DNA of 35,972 bases from a virus (taxonomy: Duplodnaviria; Caudoviricetes), in IMG/VR virus record IMGVR_UViG_3300017646_000189, positions 1 through 35,972 of that record. One strand, 5' to 3'. Position numbers and translations under genes: made by a program. The first letter of the stretch is position 1. Every line of letters starts with the position of its first letter. This document shows, piece by piece, positions 2,268-34,689 of this stretch. Below the pieces are notes generated by a model. It was not told where the DNA came from and did not search any database. It saw nothing but the letters and a program-made list of their open reading frames with translations.

Positions 2268-4036
2268 CAGAGCGCCTCGATCTGCTTGAAGTATCGCGAC
2301 ATGGCGGCCTGGGCGGCCAGCATCTGCACCGAATTGAGCGAGCGACCGAGCATCGCGGCCCGCACGGTGCCGGCGAAAAACTTGCTCACGCCGCCGTTGC
2401 TGTTGGTCGCGCCCATAAAGGCCGGCCGGTTGGGCAGGAAGTTGATGGCCTCGCGCATCTTCACCTCGCCCGAGGCGCCGGGGCCATACATGGTGTAGCG
2501 ATCCAGCGCCGAGCGGGAGACCCCGACGAAACCGATATCCGCCAGGTTCTCGAGCAGGTCGGTGGCGGAACTGGTCATCCAGCCGACGCCCGCAACCGTG
2601 GTGGTGAAGCGGGTCGGGTGAAGCTCGAACCCGCCATCCCCCAGCGCGGCCCGCTGCGTGCCGATGGGCAAGCGCGTGGTCCAGACCGCGGCGGCAACGG
2701 AGGACGGGGCGCCGCCGCCGATGAACGTATTCAGGTTGACGCTGGTGTTGTGGTAATCGTCCACGCCGTCATAGACAAAGCCCTGCTTGGCCGAGAAGGC
2801 CGGTGCGCTGCCGCCGACCGTCATGACATTGGACCCGGACCAGTTGACCAGCGCCGCGCTTTCCGCATGGGCTGCGGTGACGAAGAGACCGCCCATGCGC
2901 GACAGGATGCCTTCGCGCCGCAGCGCCGAGTAGAGCCGGCGATAGGCGTCCTGCCAGGGCAGGTTCGGCATCGGCGCGCCTGCCGAGACCATGCGGCTGA
3001 TGAGCCCCTGAAAATCCGTCTCCCAGTTCGGGTTCGGCTCATGCAGCGGGACCGAGAACGTGCCTGCCACATCCGCCGACGCGGTGGCGATGACATAGAT
3101 CGGCGTCGCCGGGATGGTGTCGAGGTCCAGCGCATCGCCCGGGCCGAGCGGCAGCACGCCGGCATCCGTGACTGTCACCGGGGCGATCCCGAAGGCCAGG
3201 CCGACGGTCGCAATGTCGCTCTTGTTCACCAGTTTCAGATCCGTCACCGGGCCGGCGGCCACCAGAACGGCAGCGGAAGTGGTCGCCGTCGCGGCGAGGG
3301 CATAGGTCGTCATCGGTTGCTCCTGTTGAGATGCGCCGGTTTCGATGGCCGCGAGGCGGTCCACGAGATATTGCAGGGTCTGGGAATTCAGCCTTGCCGT
3401 GGCCGCGGCCTCCTGGGCCCGCTCGTCGGCAAGGGTGGCAAGGATCCGGTTGTCAGCATCGGCCGCGCGCATCTCCGCGTGGATGCCATCGATGGCGGCC
3501 AGCAGGTCGGACCGGGACACGTCGTTGAGGATGCGCCAATGCCCCGAGGCGCCGCCGACCAGCCGCCGCAGGATCAGGACGCGGTTCGGCTGGATATACC
3601 CGGCTGGCAGCTCATTGCCGCTGTTGTCCAGCACGCGCCGCGTGGTGTCGCCGGAAACCGCCAGCGTGACGTTGCCGGTATTGGCGGCGGTGGGGACCAG
3701 GATCGCGGCCGTCTGGTTCGTGATCGTCACCCCCGACGCCACCGCGAGCGGATGCAGGTCGGCGGTGATCGCGTCGCCAGTCCCGGCTACGTTGACCAGC
3801 GGCACCAGGCTGGAGATGCCGAGCAGCGTCAGGATATCCTCCAGCGCCGACGGGTCGCCCATGGTCTGGGCGAGGGTGACCAGAAGCGCGCGCAACTCGG
3901 CCTTGATCAGGTCATGCACCCCGGAACGGGGATCACCGATAGGCGGGGGATGTCCAACCGGTTCATTCGGCTGGCCGTCCCCCGTGTAACGCTCGAAGTC
4001 ACGAAGGACGCGGTTGATATCGTCTACTATAGGCAT
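2267..4036 (-). CDS. Tail fibre / receptor-binding protein with C-terminal LamG/ConA-like region
   Basis: Lies after the tail tip gene. Likely start is MPIVDD at 4036. Has an N-terminal anchor region, a coiled-coil-like middle and a C-terminal FVYDGVDDY...FFAGTVRAAMLGRSL lectin-like pattern. Confidence 0.65.
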   Translation of the reverse strand: MPIVDDINRVLRDFERYTGDGQPNEPVGHPPPIGDPRSGVHDLIKAELRALLVTLAQTMGDPSALEDILTLLGISSLVPLVNVAGTGDAITADLHPLAVASGVTITNQTAAILVPTAANTGNVTLAVSGDTTRRVLDNSGNELPAGYIQPNRVLILRRLVGGASGHWRILNDVSRSDLLAAIDGIHAEMRAADADNRILATLADERAQEAAATARLNSQTLQYLVDRLAAIETGASQQEQPMTTYALAATATTSAAVLVAAGPVTDLKLVNKSDIATVGLAFGIAPVTVTDAGVLPLGPGDALDLDTIPATPIYVIATASADVAGTFSVPLHEPNPNWETDFQGLISRMVSAGAPMPNLPWQDAYRRLYSALRREGILSRMGGLFVTAAHAESAALVNWSGSNVMTVGGSAPAFSAKQGFVYDGVDDYHNTSVNLNTFIGGGAPSSVAAAVWTTRLPIGTQRAALGDGGFELHPTRFTTTVAGVGWMTSSATDLLENLADIGFVGVSRSALDRYTMYGPGASGEVKMREAINFLPNRPAFMGATNSNGGVSKFFAGTVRAAMLGRSLNSVQMLAAQAAMSRYFKQIEAL

Positions 4037-7156: not shown

Positions 7157-7827
7157 CAGATCGCCTCTTGGAAGTTGACCTGAACGACGGGGAGCACGTC
7201 CAGGGACTGGTCGAACACCCCTTCGCTTTCGGTCGTGAACCGCATCTTGCAGACCGGCTTCTCGATCTCGACCCGCGTGCCGGCCGCAACCGCGACCCGA
7301 AGCGGCGGCTGGAACATCAGGCGATGGGCGCCCGGGGCGGGCTGCCAACATGCCTGCACGCGGTGCAGCCTTTCGCCGATGCTGAAGAACTGCCCGGGCC
7401 GGAGGCCGGTGGTATCGTTCAATGTCACATCGATCTCGGTCGCACGCAGCGGCGCAGCGGCCGCGACGACGACGCGATCAATATCCGTGCTGGCGAAGCC
7501 GAAATGATCCCACGTCTGTGCGCCGCGCAGGTTAGCGACATCGCAGAACGCCAGGTGATGACCGTCCCGGTCACGCGGCCGCCACCGATAGCGCGCCGGC
7601 ACGAGCGTCGTGCCGACCATGCCTTCCATCTGGGCCAGGAACGCCTGCCATTGCAGCTGCGCCGCCTCGCGCCGGATCGCGAACGAACAGGTCGCCATCC
7701 ACCGGCCCCGCATCGTCGGCACGATGGTCTCGGTCCCGCTGATGCTTTCCTGCGGTTCAAGGCTCATGCCGACCGGCCAGAACTGCACGGCCTGCCAGAG
7801 CAGGCGATGGGGGAACGTCGCCTGCAT
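7156..7827 (-). CDS. Distal tail protein-like
   Basis: Immediately follows the tape measure gene with a TGATG overlap. Contains LRPGQFFSIGERLHRV and FQPPLR motifs. Confidence 0.65.
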   Translation of the reverse strand: MQATFPHRLLWQAVQFWPVGMSLEPQESISGTETIVPTMRGRWMATCSFAIRREAAQLQWQAFLAQMEGMVGTTLVPARYRWRPRDRDGHHLAFCDVANLRGAQTWDHFGFASTDIDRVVVAAAAPLRATEIDVTLNDTTGLRPGQFFSIGERLHRVQACWQPAPGAHRLMFQPPLRVAVAAGTRVEIEKPVCKMRFTTESEGVFDQSLDVLPVVQVNFQEAI

Positions 7828-10772
7828 CAGGCCCTCCGCCGTTGATGATCGGACAGGACGGCCGGCACCTGCGCCAGGATCTGGCGGCCGGCGCGGGCGA
7901 TCTTCGCGTCAAGCTCGCGGTCGCCAGTGGTGCCGCGCAGATCGATGGACAGGCTGACGGTGGTGTTGCCGCCGGAAGATCCCTGCCCGCCGCGCAATGC
8001 GGCCTGCGCCTGCGCCACGCTGAGGATGCGCCCGTTGACCGCTGGAACGAAAGGCTCTGGGCCCTTCTCGCCGACCACATAGGCCTTGCCGGCCTGGACG
8101 GGGCCGCCGGCCGCGCGAAAGCCGCCGAAGATCTTGCCCAGCACATTGCTGAGGACGCCGCCGCCACCGCCGCCGGTCGCGCTGAACTGGTCGACCAATG
8201 CGGCCCGGATGCCGGAGCGGAGGATGTCGGCCGCGATCTGCTTGAAAACCTGCGCCAGACCGTCGCGAAGGCTTTCCCCGGCCACCAGCGCGCCTGCGAA
8301 GGCGTCGGCGATGCCGTCGATAGCCTGCTCGAACTGCTGCTGCGCGATCTCTGCTCTCGAAAGCTGATCGGCCAGATGGCCGATATGCACGGCCTGTTCG
8401 GCGATGTTCTTGCTGGTCTTTTCGTCAATCAGGATGCCGGCCTTCTTGGCGGCGTCGAGCATGGCCCACTCGGAACGCAGACGGGCGGTTTCCTCGACGG
8501 ACTTCCCGACCAGGACGAGCTGGCGTTCCAGGTTCTCGATTTCCGCCCCGGCGTCCTCGAAAATATCGGTGACGGTTTTGCCGCCTTTCGAGCGGCCACC
8601 GCCTGCCTTCGTTCGCCCGCCGCCGCCAGATGCCCTCTCGGCCTTGCCCTCGGCCGCGCGGCGCGCGTCTGCAGCGGCCTGTTCGATGGCAAGCTGCCTC
8701 GCCTGTTCCTCGGTGATGACCGCTTGGGAGGAGGCGGCATCTTTCATGATTTGCGCCGTGCGCTTCTCGATATCCTGCTGTTCCCGGCTTAGAGCATTGC
8801 GCCGACGCTGCTCGTCCAGAAATGCTTGGGTGGCTGCGCCCTCTTTCTCAAGCGAGGTATCGCCATCGGATGCAGCGCCGCCGCCGGTAACGACGCGCAA
8901 CGCGACGGTGGCCGCGACAGCCTCAGCGCGAAGCGCCCCGAGCCGGCCGATCACCGCATCGATTGCGGCTATCGCGCCTTTGAAGCTTGGGTTTTCGGCA
9001 CCCAACGCAGCAATGGCCGCGCGGGCATCCTCGGCAGATTCCTCGCCGTCTACGAACTTCTGGATAATGCGATCCATCGACGCCACAATATCTGCGTCGA
9101 GTTGGCCTGTATCAGCCATCCGATCAAGATGCTCTCGCAACCGGATTAGTTGCTCATTAGCCGCCTCAATGCTGGGAGACGCGCCCATCATTGTTAGGGC
9201 TGCCTCGGTCGCAATGGCCGCACGCGCAACATTGTCCAGCTCTCGAAGCAAGTCCTGCGCTGGCTCGTCTAGCTTTTTCCGCGATATATCCGACAGACCA
9301 TCCAGCAATTGCGCAGCGGAGATATTAGTTTTCTGATATTCTGTTGCGAGTTCTCTAGCTGTTTGTAGCGCTGAAAGGCTTTCGCGGGACAATGCAGAGA
9401 ACATGAACCAGCGTTCCTGCTTATTAATATCTCCAATTATTCTCCCAATGTCACTGAAATCGCCAAACACTTGAGAACTGAACGAATATTCACCCCGAAG
9501 GTTATTAAGACCTCTTTTCAGGCGCTCAATGCGTTCCAGTTGATCTTCGGTTCCAATACCGTCAGCAGCCTCGGCAACTTCCTTAAGCGCGCTGGCGGCA
9601 TCAGGCGAATAAAGACCCATGTCCCGCAGCTCTTCGCGCAGCGCCCGGCTGCGCTCTTCCGCCCTTGCTGCCGCGTCGGAATAAAGGAAAACTCCGCCGG
9701 CAAGCAGTCCGCCGATGGCCATGCCCAGCGGCCCCGCCGCCGCGCTCAACCCCCCGATTGCGGCTCCGACACCGGCCATGGAGGTGGCAGCGCGCAGCGC
9801 TGCGCCGAACTTGACCAGCACCCCGGTGGCGGCGCCGAGATTGGCGATCATGCCGCTGATCGACCTGCCAAGCATACCTGCCGCCAGCACGGCGGCCAGT
9901 TTCAGGCCGGCATCGGCCACGGTGTCGAAATTGTCGGCGATGATCGTCAACGCCTCGCCGATCCGCCCGGACATGCCGACCGCGTCATCCGCACGGCCGA
10001 CATATTCCAGCAGCGCATTGTTCAGGAGCATGAAGCCGTCCTGAATGGTCGCGGGCATTTCCGCAGCCTCCGCTCGCAGCTTCTCCATCTCCTTCGAGAT
10101 GCCGAGGATCTCCTTTCTGCCGATCTTCCCTTCCTGGCCCAGCTTGCGCAGCTCCATGGTCGTCACACCCATGGAATCGGCCAGGGCTTGCGACACCCGA
10201 CCGCCGGACTCGATCACCGTATTGAGGTTGTCGCCCTGCAGAGAGCCCAATGCCATGGCCTTCGACAGGGCACTCATGACACGCTCGGCGGTCTGGCCCT
10301 TGGCGCCGGACACGACCAGGGCGTTGTTCAGGCTTTCCACGAAATCCAGCTGGCGATCTGTCGAAACGCCGAGTTCGGTCAGCGTGGTCGAGAAAGCCAG
10401 GTATCCCTCGGCGGTCTGGCTGAGGTCGGAATAGGTGCGGCGGGCCATCTCGCTGACCCGCTGCATGACCTCATTCCCTTTTTCCATGCTGCCGGCCGCC
10501 AAGTTCACGCGGCTGGTCAGATCAGTCCACTGCCCGGTCATGCGGATCAGTTCCCGGCCGCCCAGGGCGGCCGCGATGCCAGTAAAGGGCGCAATCAGCG
10601 ACTTGGCAGCCCGCGAGCCGATGCCGTCCAGATTGCGCTGCATCGCCAGGAAACGCTTCTCGATGTCGCGCGCTTGCCGGTTCGTCACGCCAACGGCCTT
10701 GCGCATTTCGCGCTCATAGCCCTTGATGTCAGCAGAGAGCTGGACAACCAGCTTTTCGAGATCGGTTGCCAT
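7827..10772 (-). CDS. Tape measure protein (981 aa)
   Basis: MATDLEKLVVQLSAD N-terminus, tape-measure domain (ALSKAMALGSLQGDNLNTV), Ala/Gly hydrophobic segment, and C-terminal GFRAAGGPVQAGKAYVVGEKGPEPFVP. Confidence 0.95.
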   Translation of the reverse strand: MATDLEKLVVQLSADIKGYEREMRKAVGVTNRQARDIEKRFLAMQRNLDGIGSRAAKSLIAPFTGIAAALGGRELIRMTGQWTDLTSRVNLAAGSMEKGNEVMQRVSEMARRTYSDLSQTAEGYLAFSTTLTELGVSTDRQLDFVESLNNALVVSGAKGQTAERVMSALSKAMALGSLQGDNLNTVIESGGRVSQALADSMGVTTMELRKLGQEGKIGRKEILGISKEMEKLRAEAAEMPATIQDGFMLLNNALLEYVGRADDAVGMSGRIGEALTIIADNFDTVADAGLKLAAVLAAGMLGRSISGMIANLGAATGVLVKFGAALRAATSMAGVGAAIGGLSAAAGPLGMAIGGLLAGGVFLYSDAAARAEERSRALREELRDMGLYSPDAASALKEVAEAADGIGTEDQLERIERLKRGLNNLRGEYSFSSQVFGDFSDIGRIIGDINKQERWFMFSALSRESLSALQTARELATEYQKTNISAAQLLDGLSDISRKKLDEPAQDLLRELDNVARAAIATEAALTMMGASPSIEAANEQLIRLREHLDRMADTGQLDADIVASMDRIIQKFVDGEESAEDARAAIAALGAENPSFKGAIAAIDAVIGRLGALRAEAVAATVALRVVTGGGAASDGDTSLEKEGAATQAFLDEQRRRNALSREQQDIEKRTAQIMKDAASSQAVITEEQARQLAIEQAAADARRAAEGKAERASGGGGRTKAGGGRSKGGKTVTDIFEDAGAEIENLERQLVLVGKSVEETARLRSEWAMLDAAKKAGILIDEKTSKNIAEQAVHIGHLADQLSRAEIAQQQFEQAIDGIADAFAGALVAGESLRDGLAQVFKQIAADILRSGIRAALVDQFSATGGGGGGVLSNVLGKIFGGFRAAGGPVQAGKAYVVGEKGPEPFVPAVNGRILSVAQAQAALRGGQGSSGGNTTVSLSIDLRGTTGDRELDAKIARAGRQILAQVPAVLSDHQRRRA

Positions 10773-10790
10773 TAAGGACCTCTGAACACC

Positions 10791-10952
10791 ATGAAGATAT
10801 TGAATGCCGTCGCCGCGATCTGCGTTATTCTATATGTCGCAGACCATTTCGCCCGAGAGATATACGTCGGCTACAAAGCGCGGATGATTGAGCAGCAAAT
10901 GCGATCCGAGGATCTACGCAAGGAGCTGAAAGGGATGGGGCTTCTTCGTTAA
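10791..10952 (+). CDS. 53-aa putative single-pass membrane protein, antisense moron (candidate superinfection exclusion / TMP mimic)
   Basis: MKILNAVAAICVILYVADHFAREIYVGYKARMIEQQMRSEDLRKELKGMGLLR*. AAGGA lies upstream at 10774-10778. It nearly fills the gap between the chaperone and TMP genes and has lower GC than its flanks. Too short for the ORF track. Confidence 0.7.
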   Translation: MKILNAVAAICVILYVADHFAREIYVGYKARMIEQQMRSEDLRKELKGMGLLR

Positions 10953-11197
10953 CCCATCCTCTCCATGATCCCTTGCCAAAGATCATCCTCGTCCTGCTGC
11001 GACATGGGCTGATGCTCCTCCGAGGTGTTGGCGGCGATCCAGCCTGCAACGGCGGCGCTGAACTCCCACCAGCTGCATCGCTTCACCTCGGAGGGGCTCA
11101 TGCCGGCGGCGAGCCCGTTTCCGAAGACGTCCGCGAACCTGATCTTGCCCCGCGGGAGCGGTTCGCGGTCTTCTTCCTTCCCGCCCCGGGCTTTTTT
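10949..11197 (-). CDS. C-terminal extension of the tail assembly chaperone (gpGT-like), reached by -1 frameshift
   Basis: Slippery A AAA AAG at 11197-11191. The -1 frame reads KARGGKEEDREPLPRGKIRFADVFGNGLAAGMSPSEVKRCSWWEFSAAVAGWIAANT...MERMG* with its stop at 10949. Confidence 0.8.
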   Translation of the reverse strand, partial: KKARGGKEEDREPLPRGKIRFADVFGNGLAAGMSPSEVKRCSWWEFSAAVAGWIAANTSEEHQPMSQQDEDDLWQGIMERMG

Positions 11198-11553
11198 GGC
11201 TCATCATCCGGCGCGCCGGCCAGCGCCACGCCAAGGACCGCATAGGCCGTCTGGATGTTTTCGTTCAGCTGGCCCGGCCCGACATAGGCCCGGACCTTTT
11301 TCATGGCCTCCACCGCTGGCATGCCCCCGCCGATGAGGCCCAGCCGGATCGGCTCGATGACATAGCTGGCATTGGCGTCCTTGGGCGGAGCGAACCCGGC
11401 CGCCCGGGCCAGCAGCGCGGCCTCCAGCGCCCATTGGATATACCAGGGGCCCGCATCGCATTTCTCTTGCAGCTCGGCGAGATGTTCGATCTTGAGGGCG
11501 AACTTATATGTTCCGTCCGCCCAATCGAGGATGGTTTCAGCGGAACGGGTCAT
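11098..11553 (-). CDS. Tail assembly chaperone (gpG-like, GTA-gp10-like)
   Basis: Lies between the tube and TMP genes. WADGTYKFALKIEHLAELQEKCDAGP and IRLGLIGGGM motifs. Confidence 0.85.
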   Translation of the reverse strand: MTRSAETILDWADGTYKFALKIEHLAELQEKCDAGPWYIQWALEAALLARAAGFAPPKDANASYVIEPIRLGLIGGGMPAVEAMKKVRAYVGPGQLNENIQTAYAVLGVALAGAPDDEPKKPGAGRKKTANRSRGARSGSRTSSETGSPPA

Positions 11554-26209: not shown

Positions 26210-27148
26210 TTGCCAGTTAGTAAATTTCCCTACAAAGGTAGATACGAAGGCTCTGACTTCACGATTGACGAGGTGATCTCCTCGCTGGCGGCGCAGCGCC
26301 TGTTGATCAAGCAAGCGGTGGGATTCCTCGAAGCACTTGACCCCAACTACGATCCGCAGAAAGTAGTGATACGGGTCCTCTCCATTGAGGAGGGGTCGCT
26401 GATCTGGGACCTACTCATCGAAATATGGGGAACTTACCAGAAGGAACTAACTGAACAGGTAACCGGCAGCATCGAAAAGGCAACGGGTGTGGATATACCG
26501 GAGGCATATGAACCCTTGGTAGCCATTGCCGTCATGGCCGTTGTCTACTGGGGCTTACGGTATGCATATGACCGGGTAGCAAGACGTAAAGAAAAGAAGG
26601 GCGATGAACCGCCAAAGCCTTCGATCCACATTGAGGGAAACTACAATACGGTGATCCAGCTTGTGGCTGACAAGGTGGAGAGCGCCCCTGAGTGGGTGGA
26701 TAGTGTGCTCAACGAAAAACTTTACCCCGACCGCATCAAAGTTGTTAAGGCGGCCACGGATTTTGTGCGCCCGGCCAAGCACAGGGATGCATCTATATCC
26801 GTAGAAAACGCACCAGATGTCCCAGCACAAGCTATAGCCGAGGTGCCTTCCGATTCCGAACTGAGCCAGACGTCGGAACCTGTATTCACACCACTTGAAG
26901 ACGCCACAATGCTCATCCGAGGTACTGATCGCGATAGTCACCAGGCAGGCTGGCGTGGGTTGATTGAGGATGATGAGCGGTTTCCAAAGCGTCTACCGAT
27001 CCGGCTTTCGCCGACAATCGACCCAGAGGAGCTAGCGGATCTGCCAAAAATCAGGGTAACAGGCACAGTGGAGGGCGAGAGGTTCTTCGACGGCACCTAT
27101 GTGCCTCGACGTGTGCACCTTTATTCTTATACCCCAGATTCGGACTAA
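26210..27148 (+). CDS. Low-GC accessory protein downstream of cI, one predicted hydrophobic helix
   Basis: 312-aa ORF with atypical codons and a LVAIAVMAVVYWGL segment. It starts 24 bp after the cI stop. Confidence 0.8.
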   Translation: MPVSKFPYKGRYEGSDFTIDEVISSLAAQRLLIKQAVGFLEALDPNYDPQKVVIRVLSIEEGSLIWDLLIEIWGTYQKELTEQVTGSIEKATGVDIPEAYEPLVAIAVMAVVYWGLRYAYDRVARRKEKKGDEPPKPSIHIEGNYNTVIQLVADKVESAPEWVDSVLNEKLYPDRIKVVKAATDFVRPAKHRDASISVENAPDVPAQAIAEVPSDSELSQTSEPVFTPLEDATMLIRGTDRDSHQAGWRGLIEDDERFPKRLPIRLSPTIDPEELADLPKIRVTGTVEGERFFDGTYVPRRVHLYSYTPDSD

Positions 27149-33549: not shown

Positions 33550-34689
33550 GTGCCTGATACAACCGTAAACCTCATGTGGATCGGCAATCGTCAACCATTG
33601 CTTGATCCAACCCCCGGCAGCAATATCAGTCAGACCCAAGCCAACCAGATCGTCGGCTGGATGGCCGAAGGCAAGGATGAAATCAAGCCGGTAGAATTGA
33701 CCGGGGATTACTATACCAGCGGTGGCAATCATTTTAAGACGACCTATCAGGGCACCGCTCAACAGCCGACCAGCCAGTTTTCCTATACTGATCCCGCTGG
33801 CGACCCGCAAAGCGGGGTCACGATAACGACCTTCGTAAGCGCCCGCTTTGCGATCACCGTGCATGATGAAGACGGCAATCCTTCCGTGGTGCAGCAGAAC
33901 GGCGTCCTCATTCAGATGAGCAACGGTGATCTGTTCTTTCGCCCATCGGCGAGCACCGTGAACGATTGGGACAGCATCACGCGATTCTCAAAGGTCGAGG
34001 TCTTGTCGGCCACGCCGATCGACAACACCGTAGCCACCATCGGCTTCAACGCCGACATATTTGAAACGGACATCGTCTGTTTCGTTCGCGGCACCTTGAT
34101 CGAATGCGCCGATGGCTCGCGGCCGATCGAAAGTCTCAAGGTGGGAGATCTGGTTCAGACGCTGGATAACGGCCATCAGCCCCTCCGCTGGATCGGGTCG
34201 GTGAAACTCGGCGCCTCGGCGCTGAAGGCGACGCCGAAGCTGCTGCCCATCCGCATCAAGGCCGGTGCCTTGGGGACGGAAACCCCGTCCTCGGACCTTC
34301 TGGTGTCGCCCCAGCACCGGGTTCTTGTCCGGTCGAAAGTGGCCCTGAAGATGTTCGGTGCTACCGAGGTGCTGGTCGCGGCCAAGCAGCTTTTGCAGAT
34401 CGAGGGCGTCGATGTCGCCGAGGACCTGCACGAGGTCGAATATTTCCATCTGCTTTTCGACCGGCACGAGGTGGTGACATCGAACGGCGCGCCGACCGAA
34501 TCGCTCTATACCGGGGCGCAGGCGCTTCAGTCGGTGGGCCAGGCGGCGCGGGAGGAGATCTTCACCCTGTTCCCCGAGCTTCGCGAAAAGGAGTTCGTGC
34601 CGCAGCCCGCACGACCGTTGCCTTCGGGCCGCAAGGCCCGGAAGCTGACGGTCCGTCACATCGAGCACCATCGCCCGCTGGTCTGCTGA
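33550..34689 (+). CDS. Hint-domain protein (Hint_2, bacterial intein-like type B)
   Basis: VCFVRGTLI, IESLKVGDLV, LLVSPQHRV and YFHLLFDRHEVVTSNGAPTES motifs. GAGGAG RBS. Confidence 0.92.
   Translation: MPDTTVNLMWIGNRQPLLDPTPGSNISQTQANQIVGWMAEGKDEIKPVELTGDYYTSGGNHFKTTYQGTAQQPTSQFSYTDPAGDPQSGVTITTFVSARFAITVHDEDGNPSVVQQNGVLIQMSNGDLFFRPSASTVNDWDSITRFSKVEVLSATPIDNTVATIGFNADIFETDIVCFVRGTLIECADGSRPIESLKVGDLVQTLDNGHQPLRWIGSVKLGASALKATPKLLPIRIKAGALGTETPSSDLLVSPQHRVLVRSKVALKMFGATEVLVAAKQLLQIEGVDVAEDLHEVEYFHLLFDRHEVVTSNGAPTESLYTGAQALQSVGQAAREEIFTLFPELREKEFVPQPARPLPSGRKARKLTVRHIEHHRPLVC

Follow-up and report, generated by a model that had tools for sequence, protein, structure and literature searches.

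A small antisense membrane protein beside a siphophage tape measure gene: a candidate exclusion moron and putative decoy of a tape measure helix

Introduction

In a Paracoccus prophage, a 53-aa open reading frame (P0001) lies antisense to the gene for the tape measure protein (TMP), and the C-terminal half of the small protein resembles a helix of that TMP. Does this resemblance have a function, and which one? The question bears on how siphophage TMPs cross the inner membrane and on how exclusion proteins of the gp15 type stop them. Our analysis of the whole stretch of 35,972 nucleotides (the window) followed up an earlier note, made from the letters alone, which had proposed a lysogen-expressed TMP decoy. 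We give an even chance to the reading that P0001 is a gp15-like superinfection-exclusion moron and a putative TMP decoy.

Results

The antisense ORF and its slot

7827-10772, minus strand: tape measure protein (TMP), 981 aa; PHROG 339 (E 3e-72), Pfam TMP_3
10657-10956, no strand: exchanged cassette (ORF and TMP 5' end, with the presumed promoter), 99-100% identical to relative L009
10791-10952, plus strand: antisense moron ORF P0001, 53 aa; homologues P0002-P0008
10797-10853, plus strand: hydrophobic membrane anchor, residues 3-21, hydropathy 1.92
10872-10946, plus strand: TMP-like segment, residues 28-52, from the alignment to the TMP family
10949-11101, minus strand: chaperone -1 frameshift extension; slippery heptamer at 11197-11191
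11098-11553, minus strand: tail assembly chaperone, a role assigned from position

The geometry described in the earlier note was reproduced: the starts of the TMP gene and P0001 are 18 bp apart, and the stop of the 53-aa ORF overlaps that of the chaperone extension in TTAA. The GC content of P0001 is 50%, compared with 63-64% in its neighbours (63% in the TMP gene), and its ribosome-binding site is weak. P0001 is inserted between conserved genes and is absent or replaced in relatives, as expected of a moron: in L011, L012, L013 and many more, the chaperone-TMP slot is either without an antisense gene or occupied by a different one, and in many relatives the antisense genes found there encode unrelated proteins of the membrane or secreted type. 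The near flanks of the cassette at 10657-10956 are only 85-94% identical to L009, which marks a recent exchange of the cassette.

The protein was predicted by AlphaFold to form one continuous helix (residues 2-48), which together with the hydropathy is the basis of its predicted location in the inner membrane. Its family is small, with members 45-98% identical, and includes a transcribed copy, 98% identical, from Paracoccus denitrificans DSM 413. The TMP-like motif is conserved, as the decoy proposal had called for, both in a TMP sub-lineage and in 7 of the 8 ORF-family sequences, although only about four of the motif-bearing ORF sequences are independent; in 7 of the 8 the chain stops directly after the motif, and homologues at 45-69% identity keep the length, the start and the protein motif. 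One sequence (L018, labelled a Hyphomonas MAG) was left out because its sequence is interrupted by stretches of N and its copy is scrambled.

P0001 had no match in PHROGs, Pfam or PADLOC or among GenBank phages, and no likeness to defence models. Its best score against the ESM Atlas was 0.76, a lead at most, and its matches among PDB sequences were coiled-coil-like or weak. A search for longer or fused forms returned none of 7997 candidates at E<=10, which is weak evidence. The lone extra family match in 401 genomes was a frame opposite a TetR-like gene and was dropped. Assignment as a lipoprotein was likewise rejected, since the cysteine is not conserved (C11 is serine in 3 of 8 sequences).

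Another explanation is that P0001 belongs to the common run of envelope morons and that its TMP-like tail records no more than its origin: a piece of TMP would once have been joined to a common slot anchor and would serve as a scaffold, and the protein would work without mimicry, perhaps in exclusion too. Envelope genes unrelated to one another accumulate in this slot; among 724 antisense ORFs there were HMM matches to L149, L151-L154, L157 and L165 (E 0.003-0.02), and this L149/L151-type slot family has a related anchor and different, longer C-terminal domains with paired cysteines. Furthermore, the homologue P0005 keeps the anchor but not the motif. However, ORF homologues that differ by 35-50% keep the same residues as the TMPs, and therefore a common constraint is indicated rather than decay; the ending of the protein directly after the motif also argues against a mere trace. 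We regard this explanation as unlikely, though worth keeping in view.

The match to a tape measure helix

9684-9740, minus strand: TMP residues 345-363, membrane segment predicted from hydropathy
9609-9683, minus strand: matched TMP helix, residues 364-388, directly after the hydrophobic stretch

Residues 345-363 form the sole run of 19 residues in the TMP with a hydropathy above 1.6, and the helix that follows, residues 364-388, is conserved in one sub-lineage of alphaproteobacterial TMPs. Residues 28-52 of P0001 pair with it gap-free (Y28 opposite Y364), and most of the residues shared with the TMP family (Y28, R38, S39, L42, R43, E45, L46, G50 and L51) lie on one helix face. The TMP is probably a mosaic, because the segment 9201-9600 has a GC content of 0.50 and is about 57% identical to L009; the AlphaFold model of TMP residues 251-490 was of low confidence (pLDDT 48.5).

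At TMP residues 374-387 (nt 9653-9612) we recovered the 14-mer match described before, with 9/14 residues identical and with the codon differences then listed. Only 26/42 nucleotides are identical, and 5 of the 10 same-residue codons; a recent DNA duplication of the TMP helix was thus rejected in favour of a protein-level copy, in agreement with the earlier note. A second resemblance claimed there, between ORF residues 12-23 and TMP residues 361-372, was not supported: it amounts to 4/12 identical residues, lies 13 residues off register with the main match and scored -0.8 to 1.0 bits with the TMP-segment HMM.

The earlier note had asked that the match exceed shuffled sequences, and here the level of comparison matters. 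The own-pair Smith-Waterman score of 43 was reached by 41/5000 ORF shuffles and 46/5000 TMP shuffles, so that P0001 against its own TMP, taken alone, is a weak match (p ~0.01). In contrast, family against family the match is far beyond chance (hhalign E 1.5e-5, probability 79%). With a TMP-family profile, 5/6 ORF homologues scored 36.6-43.4, whereas none of 186,853 natural 27-mers exceeded 26.5. A profile built without P0001 gave 28.7-52.0 for 9/9 TMPs; the control maximum was 23.3, and none of 42 other TMPs went above 19.7. When 155 Paracoccus genomes were searched with the ORF HMM (E<=0.05), 3 of the 4 non-self matches were the site of TMP helix 364-388. Over the 25 residues, ORF-TMP identities are up to 11-12, equal to those among distant ORF homologues (P0004: 8-12).

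Could the match be coincidental, through convergence or chance? Besides the p value of the single pair, several points favour this: very many windows were screened before this match was picked out; a charged amphipathic helix with a terminal glycine cap is a common pattern; a similar stretch was found in a non-TMP frame of genome G097; and six-frame chance matches in 155-401 genomes scored 13.7-18.4 bits, a level no lower than that of the true pairs (7.5-19.6 bits). Against it, none of 573 natural control proteins reached 43 for P0001 or 50 for any homologue, while ORF-TMP cross pairs reach 56-60; the match falls exactly after the only strongly hydrophobic stretch of the TMP; and none of the other 724 x 122 slot comparisons scores better. 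We therefore consider coincidence quite improbable. A point against the decoy reading is that the ORF copy in G001 was missed (E<=0.05) when the search was reversed and a TMP-segment HMM was used as the query. The matches of this HMM in G104, G009, G881 and G718 were rejected as not being small membrane ORFs, and a motif-like ORF in L179 was rejected because a longer slot gene covers it in a different frame.

Two checks that the earlier note proposed turned out negative. It had asked whether each such ORF best matches its own TMP; P0001 scores 43 with its own TMP and 56-58 with those of relatives, and P0002 scores 54 with its own and 58 with the best TMP; these are the only two ORF-TMP pairs with gene context, which covers none of P0003-P0008. 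Mimicry is also not general to the slot, as no other among 724 antisense ORFs, collected from 126 loci, equals P0001 in its match to a TMP. The weakness of the own pair relative to non-cognate pairs, the lack of the motif in P0005 and the lack of a TMP match in other slot genes were counted against the decoy reading.

Transcription

10737-11150, plus strand: approximate antisense transcript, mapped from L017 with a 7522-nt offset
11150-11168, plus strand: terminator-like hairpin near the RNA fade, at chance level (1 found, 0.9 expected)

A promoter inside the TMP 5' end had been predicted, and strong transcription starting there was found in a strain with a 98%-identical copy. RNA depth over the ORF copy was 430-610 in one direction, compared with 0-62 over TMP and flanks (3 runs from 2 studies); 2 of the 5 runs (X19, X21) had no reads of the stretch, and the direction is the ORF sense only if the library is of the usual stranded type. 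A further 14 RNA runs, in which the stretch occurs within contigs, are outside this count. The 5' edge, extrapolated from the depth ramp, lies near TMP codon 12, and the RNA fades over the chaperone extension. No sigma-70 consensus site was found and the promoter hexamers could not be fixed; a synonymous bias is present at TMP codons 12, 14 and 15, for which a translation-start bias could equally account. RNA was high on the ORF copy while the adjoining late genes were low, and on the 98%-identical copy P0001 thus forms its own transcription unit, active with the late genes quiet.

Such an RNA could itself be the working product, damping leaky tail expression, with the peptide incidental. It covers the TMP ribosome-binding site and first codons and the chaperone extension, from a start near codon 12. 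Nevertheless, homologues with 45-69% identity still share the length, the start codon position and the protein motif, and many unrelated protein genes occupy the same slot; we hold this to be very improbable, and an antisense RNA effect may be a side function. Equally remote, in our estimate, is a decoy that helps the phage by soaking up a host TMP-sensing defence, for instance a SNIPE-like membrane protein. TMP-binding membrane defences do exist, according to the part of the literature available, but high RNA with low late-gene RNA fits lysogeny, when disarming a host defence would harm the prophage, and no expression is possible before the phage's own DNA has entered.

Discussion

How P0001 may act

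P0001 would likely act as a decoy and block DNA injection by related phages. Behind its predicted inner-membrane anchor, the protein carries a copy of the helix that comes after the predicted membrane segment of the TMP. We infer an N-in/C-out topology, and the copied helix would therefore lie at the periplasmic side of this membrane, the place at which an incoming TMP would present the same helix once its residues 345-363 insert. The decoy might then replace a TMP subunit in pairing with the incoming TMP, so that the channel is not formed, a step that we think possible but on balance doubtful; alternatively, and with less probability, it would occupy the host inner-membrane partner of the TMP helix. 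The targets would be phages with L009/L011/L023/L024-type TMPs. More generally, a common anchor joined to a copy of a TMP juxtamembrane helix may act as a dominant-negative subunit of the injection channel, in cassettes that are swapped and aimed at the TMP type of rivals; we advance this tentatively, as somewhat short of an even chance.

The earlier note had also considered disruption of tail assembly, which fits poorly with a helix that is likely periplasmic. In its explicit form, a cytoplasmic helix would capture the invader's tail chaperone or newly made TMP, as a Tab-like blocker silenced by late transcription on induction. The antisense layout here would permit such silencing, and Tab, in the part of its source available, is a minus-strand, prophage-expressed product that targets the TMP. 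In contrast, a C-terminus in the periplasm is suggested by Lys at position 2, by the acidic residues past the anchor and by the paired cysteines of the L149/L151-type family, the slot lacks an anti-factor gene, and the defence models showed no similarity. This blocker is, in our judgement, rather improbable. If P0001 is instead an injection decoy, its periplasmic helix would not touch cytoplasmic tail assembly, and therefore no anti-factor would be needed on induction.

A natural copy of 25 residues of a TMP helix would point to the part of the TMP that matters and is a ready candidate inhibitor. If the decoy reading is true, exclusion by a dominant-negative copy of a TMP helix would be a new mechanism, and the siphophage injection channel would depend on that helix as one of its functional parts. 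The system is testable in a laboratory organism, with the copy in DSM 413 and, as candidate targets, related prophages that share the TMP helix and differ in their slot genes.

Comparison with known systems

No TMP mimic of this kind was found in print. HK97 gp15, as the available text describes it, is expressed from the prophage and blocks injection in a tail-dependent manner (PMC3594210, PMC10883804). Like P0001, it is encoded directly ahead of the TMP gene, with the chaperone frameshift gene on the other side, has about 60 aa, and consists of an N-terminal membrane helix and a charged helix; unlike P0001, it is encoded on the sense strand. P0001 as a gp15 homologue was rejected, as gp15 has no sequence similarity to the ORF family (scores 18-22, p 0.35-0.82). 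Against its own TMP, gp15 has a weak best match (score 37, reached by 92/2000 shuffles) at residues 787-813, far from the membrane segment.

Ltp of TP-J34, Sie2009 and P22 SieA are prophage membrane proteins that block injection, and escape maps to the TMP for Ltp and to ejection proteins for SieA (PMC10883804); in contrast to P0001, no target copy is described for them in the sections available, and Ltp is a lipoprotein whereas P0001 has no conserved cysteine. T4 Imm is described, in the accessible portion of its source, as a small inner-membrane exclusion protein that blocks genome entry, binds the TMP and disturbs the contact between a helical bundle and the membrane segment (bioRxiv 10.64898/2026.03.06.709160). 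It thus acts at the TMP beside the membrane segment, as P0001 putatively would, but it has several helices and belongs to a lytic myovirus, and the word "mimic" does not occur in the text.

[quoted passage not shown] Tab lies between terminase genes together with anti-Tab, whereas P0001 is a single gene in the chaperone-TMP slot. Finally, prophage P-FimU, as far as the available text goes, is a look-alike protein used for prophage defence in phage-versus-phage competition, as P0001 putatively would be; P-FimU imitates a pilus subunit of the host and prevents adsorption, whereas the P0001 tail resembles a phage protein (PMC12952977).

Genome context of the antisense ORF

In the 36-kb window, the minus strand encodes terminase, portal, protease, major head, tail tube, tape measure protein (TMP), distal tail and central fibre, and the plus strand a repressor; the window is therefore that of a temperate siphophage. 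Locus L017, whose record bears the title Paracoccus denitrificans DSM 413, has an ORF copy with 98% identity next to the same TMP start, which makes it very likely that the host is Paracoccus. The features concerned are:

7827-10772 (-), TMP, 981 aa
10791-10952 (+), antisense ORF, 53 aa
489-2267 (-), FAD-dependent oxidoreductase domain (PF12831, E 3e-51), directly behind the tail fibre genes
26210-27148 (+), low GC (0.52-0.56), function unassigned, PHROG 4506, right behind the repressor; candidate lysogen-expressed accessory gene
33550-34689 (+), Hint_2 domain protein (PF13403) by the right end, which may be host flank

The ORF, its 18-bp gap to the TMP start and its TTAA stop overlap were all re-found as the earlier note had described them, and the gene that converges on it extends the tail chaperone by a -1 frameshift.

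In related prophages, the slot between this extension and the TMP start is occupied by unrelated antisense genes, whose products are membrane or secreted proteins, or by toxin-antitoxin-like genes, or is empty. The antisense slot genes of five loci (L035, L036, L047, L048 and L050) are presumably toxin-antitoxin-like parts (HigB/RelE/AbrB-like), and in four others (L160, L166, L180 and L193) a membrane protein whose two pairs of cysteines resemble a zinc ribbon recurs, antisense, upstream of TMP. The hydrophobic N-terminal anchor of the ORF (residues 3-21) is akin to the anchor of a second family found in the slot, whose domains are longer and contain paired cysteines (E 0.003-0.02 in a comparison of 724 ORFs):

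L149, L151-L154, L157, L165, L142: 96-104 aa, encoded antisense no more than 370 nt upstream of TMP

The C-terminal domains of these L149-type proteins are variable, and the group looks like a modular anchor-plus-payload family.

Similarity between the ORF and TMP

It had been proposed that the ORF C-terminus imitates TMP 374-387, and the 9/14 match was reproduced; the best alignment has no gaps and places ORF Y28 opposite TMP Y364. Taken alone, the window's own match is modest, its score of 43 being equalled or exceeded in 41 of 5000 shuffles of the ORF and in 46 of 5000 of TMP. A second resemblance, between ORF 12-23 and TMP 361-372, did not hold up (13 residues off the main register, 4/12 identities, not significant). 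The codons were identical at only 2-7 of 7-12 same-residue positions, in agreement with the view that this is no recent DNA copy.

At the family level, the ORF tail (residues 28-52) matches, judged by sequence comparison, the juxtamembrane helix of TMP at 364-388 closely enough to be a copy rather than a chance likeness; that TMP segment is kept in a TMP sub-lineage and comes right after TMP 345-363, the sole TMP window with hydropathy >1.6. The natural control comprised 573 predicted proteins (201,751 residues), selected by their codon bias in 40 stretches of a single genome of the genus Paracoccus; against the ORF all stayed below 43 and against the homologs below 50, while ORF-TMP cross pairs reached 56-60. 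When the ORF profile was run on 74 further TMPs, the top nine scores all fell at the 364-388 site and 5/74 exceeded the control maximum, and a profile built without the window's ORF gave nine TMPs 28.7-52.0 against a control maximum of 23.3. Conversely, the TMP profile scored five ORF homologs at 36.6-43.4 (control maximum 26.5; homolog P0005, 7.9), and the two families were aligned by hhalign with E 1.5e-5. The columns common to both are Y28, R38, S39, L42, R43, E45, L46, G50 and L51. At E<=0.05, the ORF HMM had five matches in 155 Paracoccus genomes (its own sequence, three at the TMP 364-388 site and one in a non-TMP frame), and when 724 antisense ORFs from 126 loci were compared with 122 TMPs, at least 13 matches had E<=0.05 among the best five targets per query, 8 of them, including the best, from the ORF.

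Chance as the source of the likeness is improbable given these controls, although six-frame chance matches (13.7-18.4 bits) are level with true ORF-TMP pairs (7.5-19.6 bits); the case stands on adjacency, on position and on the columns in common. The independent ORF-family sequences with the motif number only ~4, and a reciprocal HMM search with the TMP segment did not return the ORF in genome G001. Motif conservation, which the earlier note had expected, was found in most of the family, but P0005 has the anchor without the motif; that the tail is a relic, TMP-like without mimicry, is rather unlikely.

Contrary to expectation, the ORF does not fit its own TMP best (43 versus 56-58 for other TMPs), and homolog P0002 scores 58 with the TMP of L024, a related locus, versus 54 with its own. 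That relatives' TMPs are fitted better is in keeping with a defence against rivals; a recent swap accounts for it equally well. On the sequence evidence the ORF cassette has moved recently, because identity to the related locus L009, 99-100% across the ORF and the initial 100 nt of TMP, drops to 85-94% in the near flanks and to 70-77% at the TMP helix matched by the ORF. Right behind that helix, the TMP segment at 9201-9600 (GC 0.50, ~57% identity to L009) is probably a swapped module.

Homologs and transcription

Searches yielded 7 more ORF-family sequences with 45-98% identity to the ORF, 6 of which are 53-57 aa long and of the same build. Expression, which had been predicted for the lysogen, was supported at the RNA level by runs X22, X23 and X24 (two studies) on L017; X19 and X21 had no reads of the stretch. 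One-direction depth over and just behind the ORF was 575 and 473 in X22 and 428 and 439 in X24 (raw reads), versus 24-62 and 0-10, respectively, over TMP. First mates of the ORF-covering reads are minus strand, and if the libraries are of the usual stranded type, as we assume, the RNA is plus strand, in the ORF sense. The ORF is a real, transcribed antisense moron, whose function we infer. That the antisense RNA by itself is the working product seems very improbable beside the conserved protein columns. In X24, a weak opposite-direction signal (28-40 versus 1-13 deeper in TMP) covers the ORF and the TMP 5' end (L017:3012-3415).

In 19-nt bins of the three runs, depth climbs from background in bin 3217-3235 to a peak of 535-614. 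The transcript 5' edge extrapolates to ~L017:3215 (window ~10737), within TMP codon 12 and ~54 nt ahead of the ORF start codon, as expected of a promoter inside the TMP 5' end; no promoter consensus was found. Beside the edge, TMP codons 12, 14 and 15 show synonymous bias (T-ending 46/76 and 48/74, C-ending 62/74; tally of window 10730-10772 and 76 TMP 5' ends), and many slot genes begin 10-60 nt from the TMP start. Therefore, an antisense promoter common to slot genes may be built into TMP.

Structure and possible mode of action

The AlphaFold model of the ORF is a single helix (residues 2-48, pLDDT 85.8), and most residues shared with TMP fall within ~140 degrees of the helix wheel. An N-in, C-out topology is suggested by the basic residue at 2, the acidic residues past the anchor and the cysteine pairs of the related family; it would place the copied helix at the periplasmic face of the inner membrane, and TMP 364-388 would arrive at that same face if TMP 345-363 inserts during injection. 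Because of this location and the shared residues on one helix face, we favor a decoy, which might, tentatively, pair with the incoming TMP and halt channel formation or, less probably, take up a host partner of the TMP helix. A decoy directed against host defence is hardly likely.

Comparison with known systems

In the titles and abstract openings searched, none of the exclusion proteins was presented as copying TMP. The defence by P-FimU, in the accessible part of its report (PMC12952977), also relies on a look-alike, but its target is a host part. Comparison with Tab of JBD26, as far as the available text describes it (PMC10884400), led us to reject the ORF as a Tab, and a Tab-like blocker of assembly is quite unlikely. 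Portions of other reports link lambda TMP residues 300-400 to ManYZ use (PMC13190303) and describe T4 Imm as a TMP binder that perturbs how the bundle contacts the membrane segment (bioRxiv 10.64898/2026.03.06.709160).

The HK97 exclusion moron gp15 lies on the opposite strand relative to the ORF and is not a homolog, and no clear TMP copy was found in gp15 when it was compared with its own HK97 TMP. By eye, HK97 TMP ~450-480 (with L196:1204-1392) has a charged helix past a hydrophobic stretch, faintly like the gp15 tail, but the local alignment favored a different site. In slot and build, however, gp15 is the same as the ORF in the available parts of its reports (PMC3594210; PMC10883804), and by this analogy the ORF likely works in the manner of gp15.
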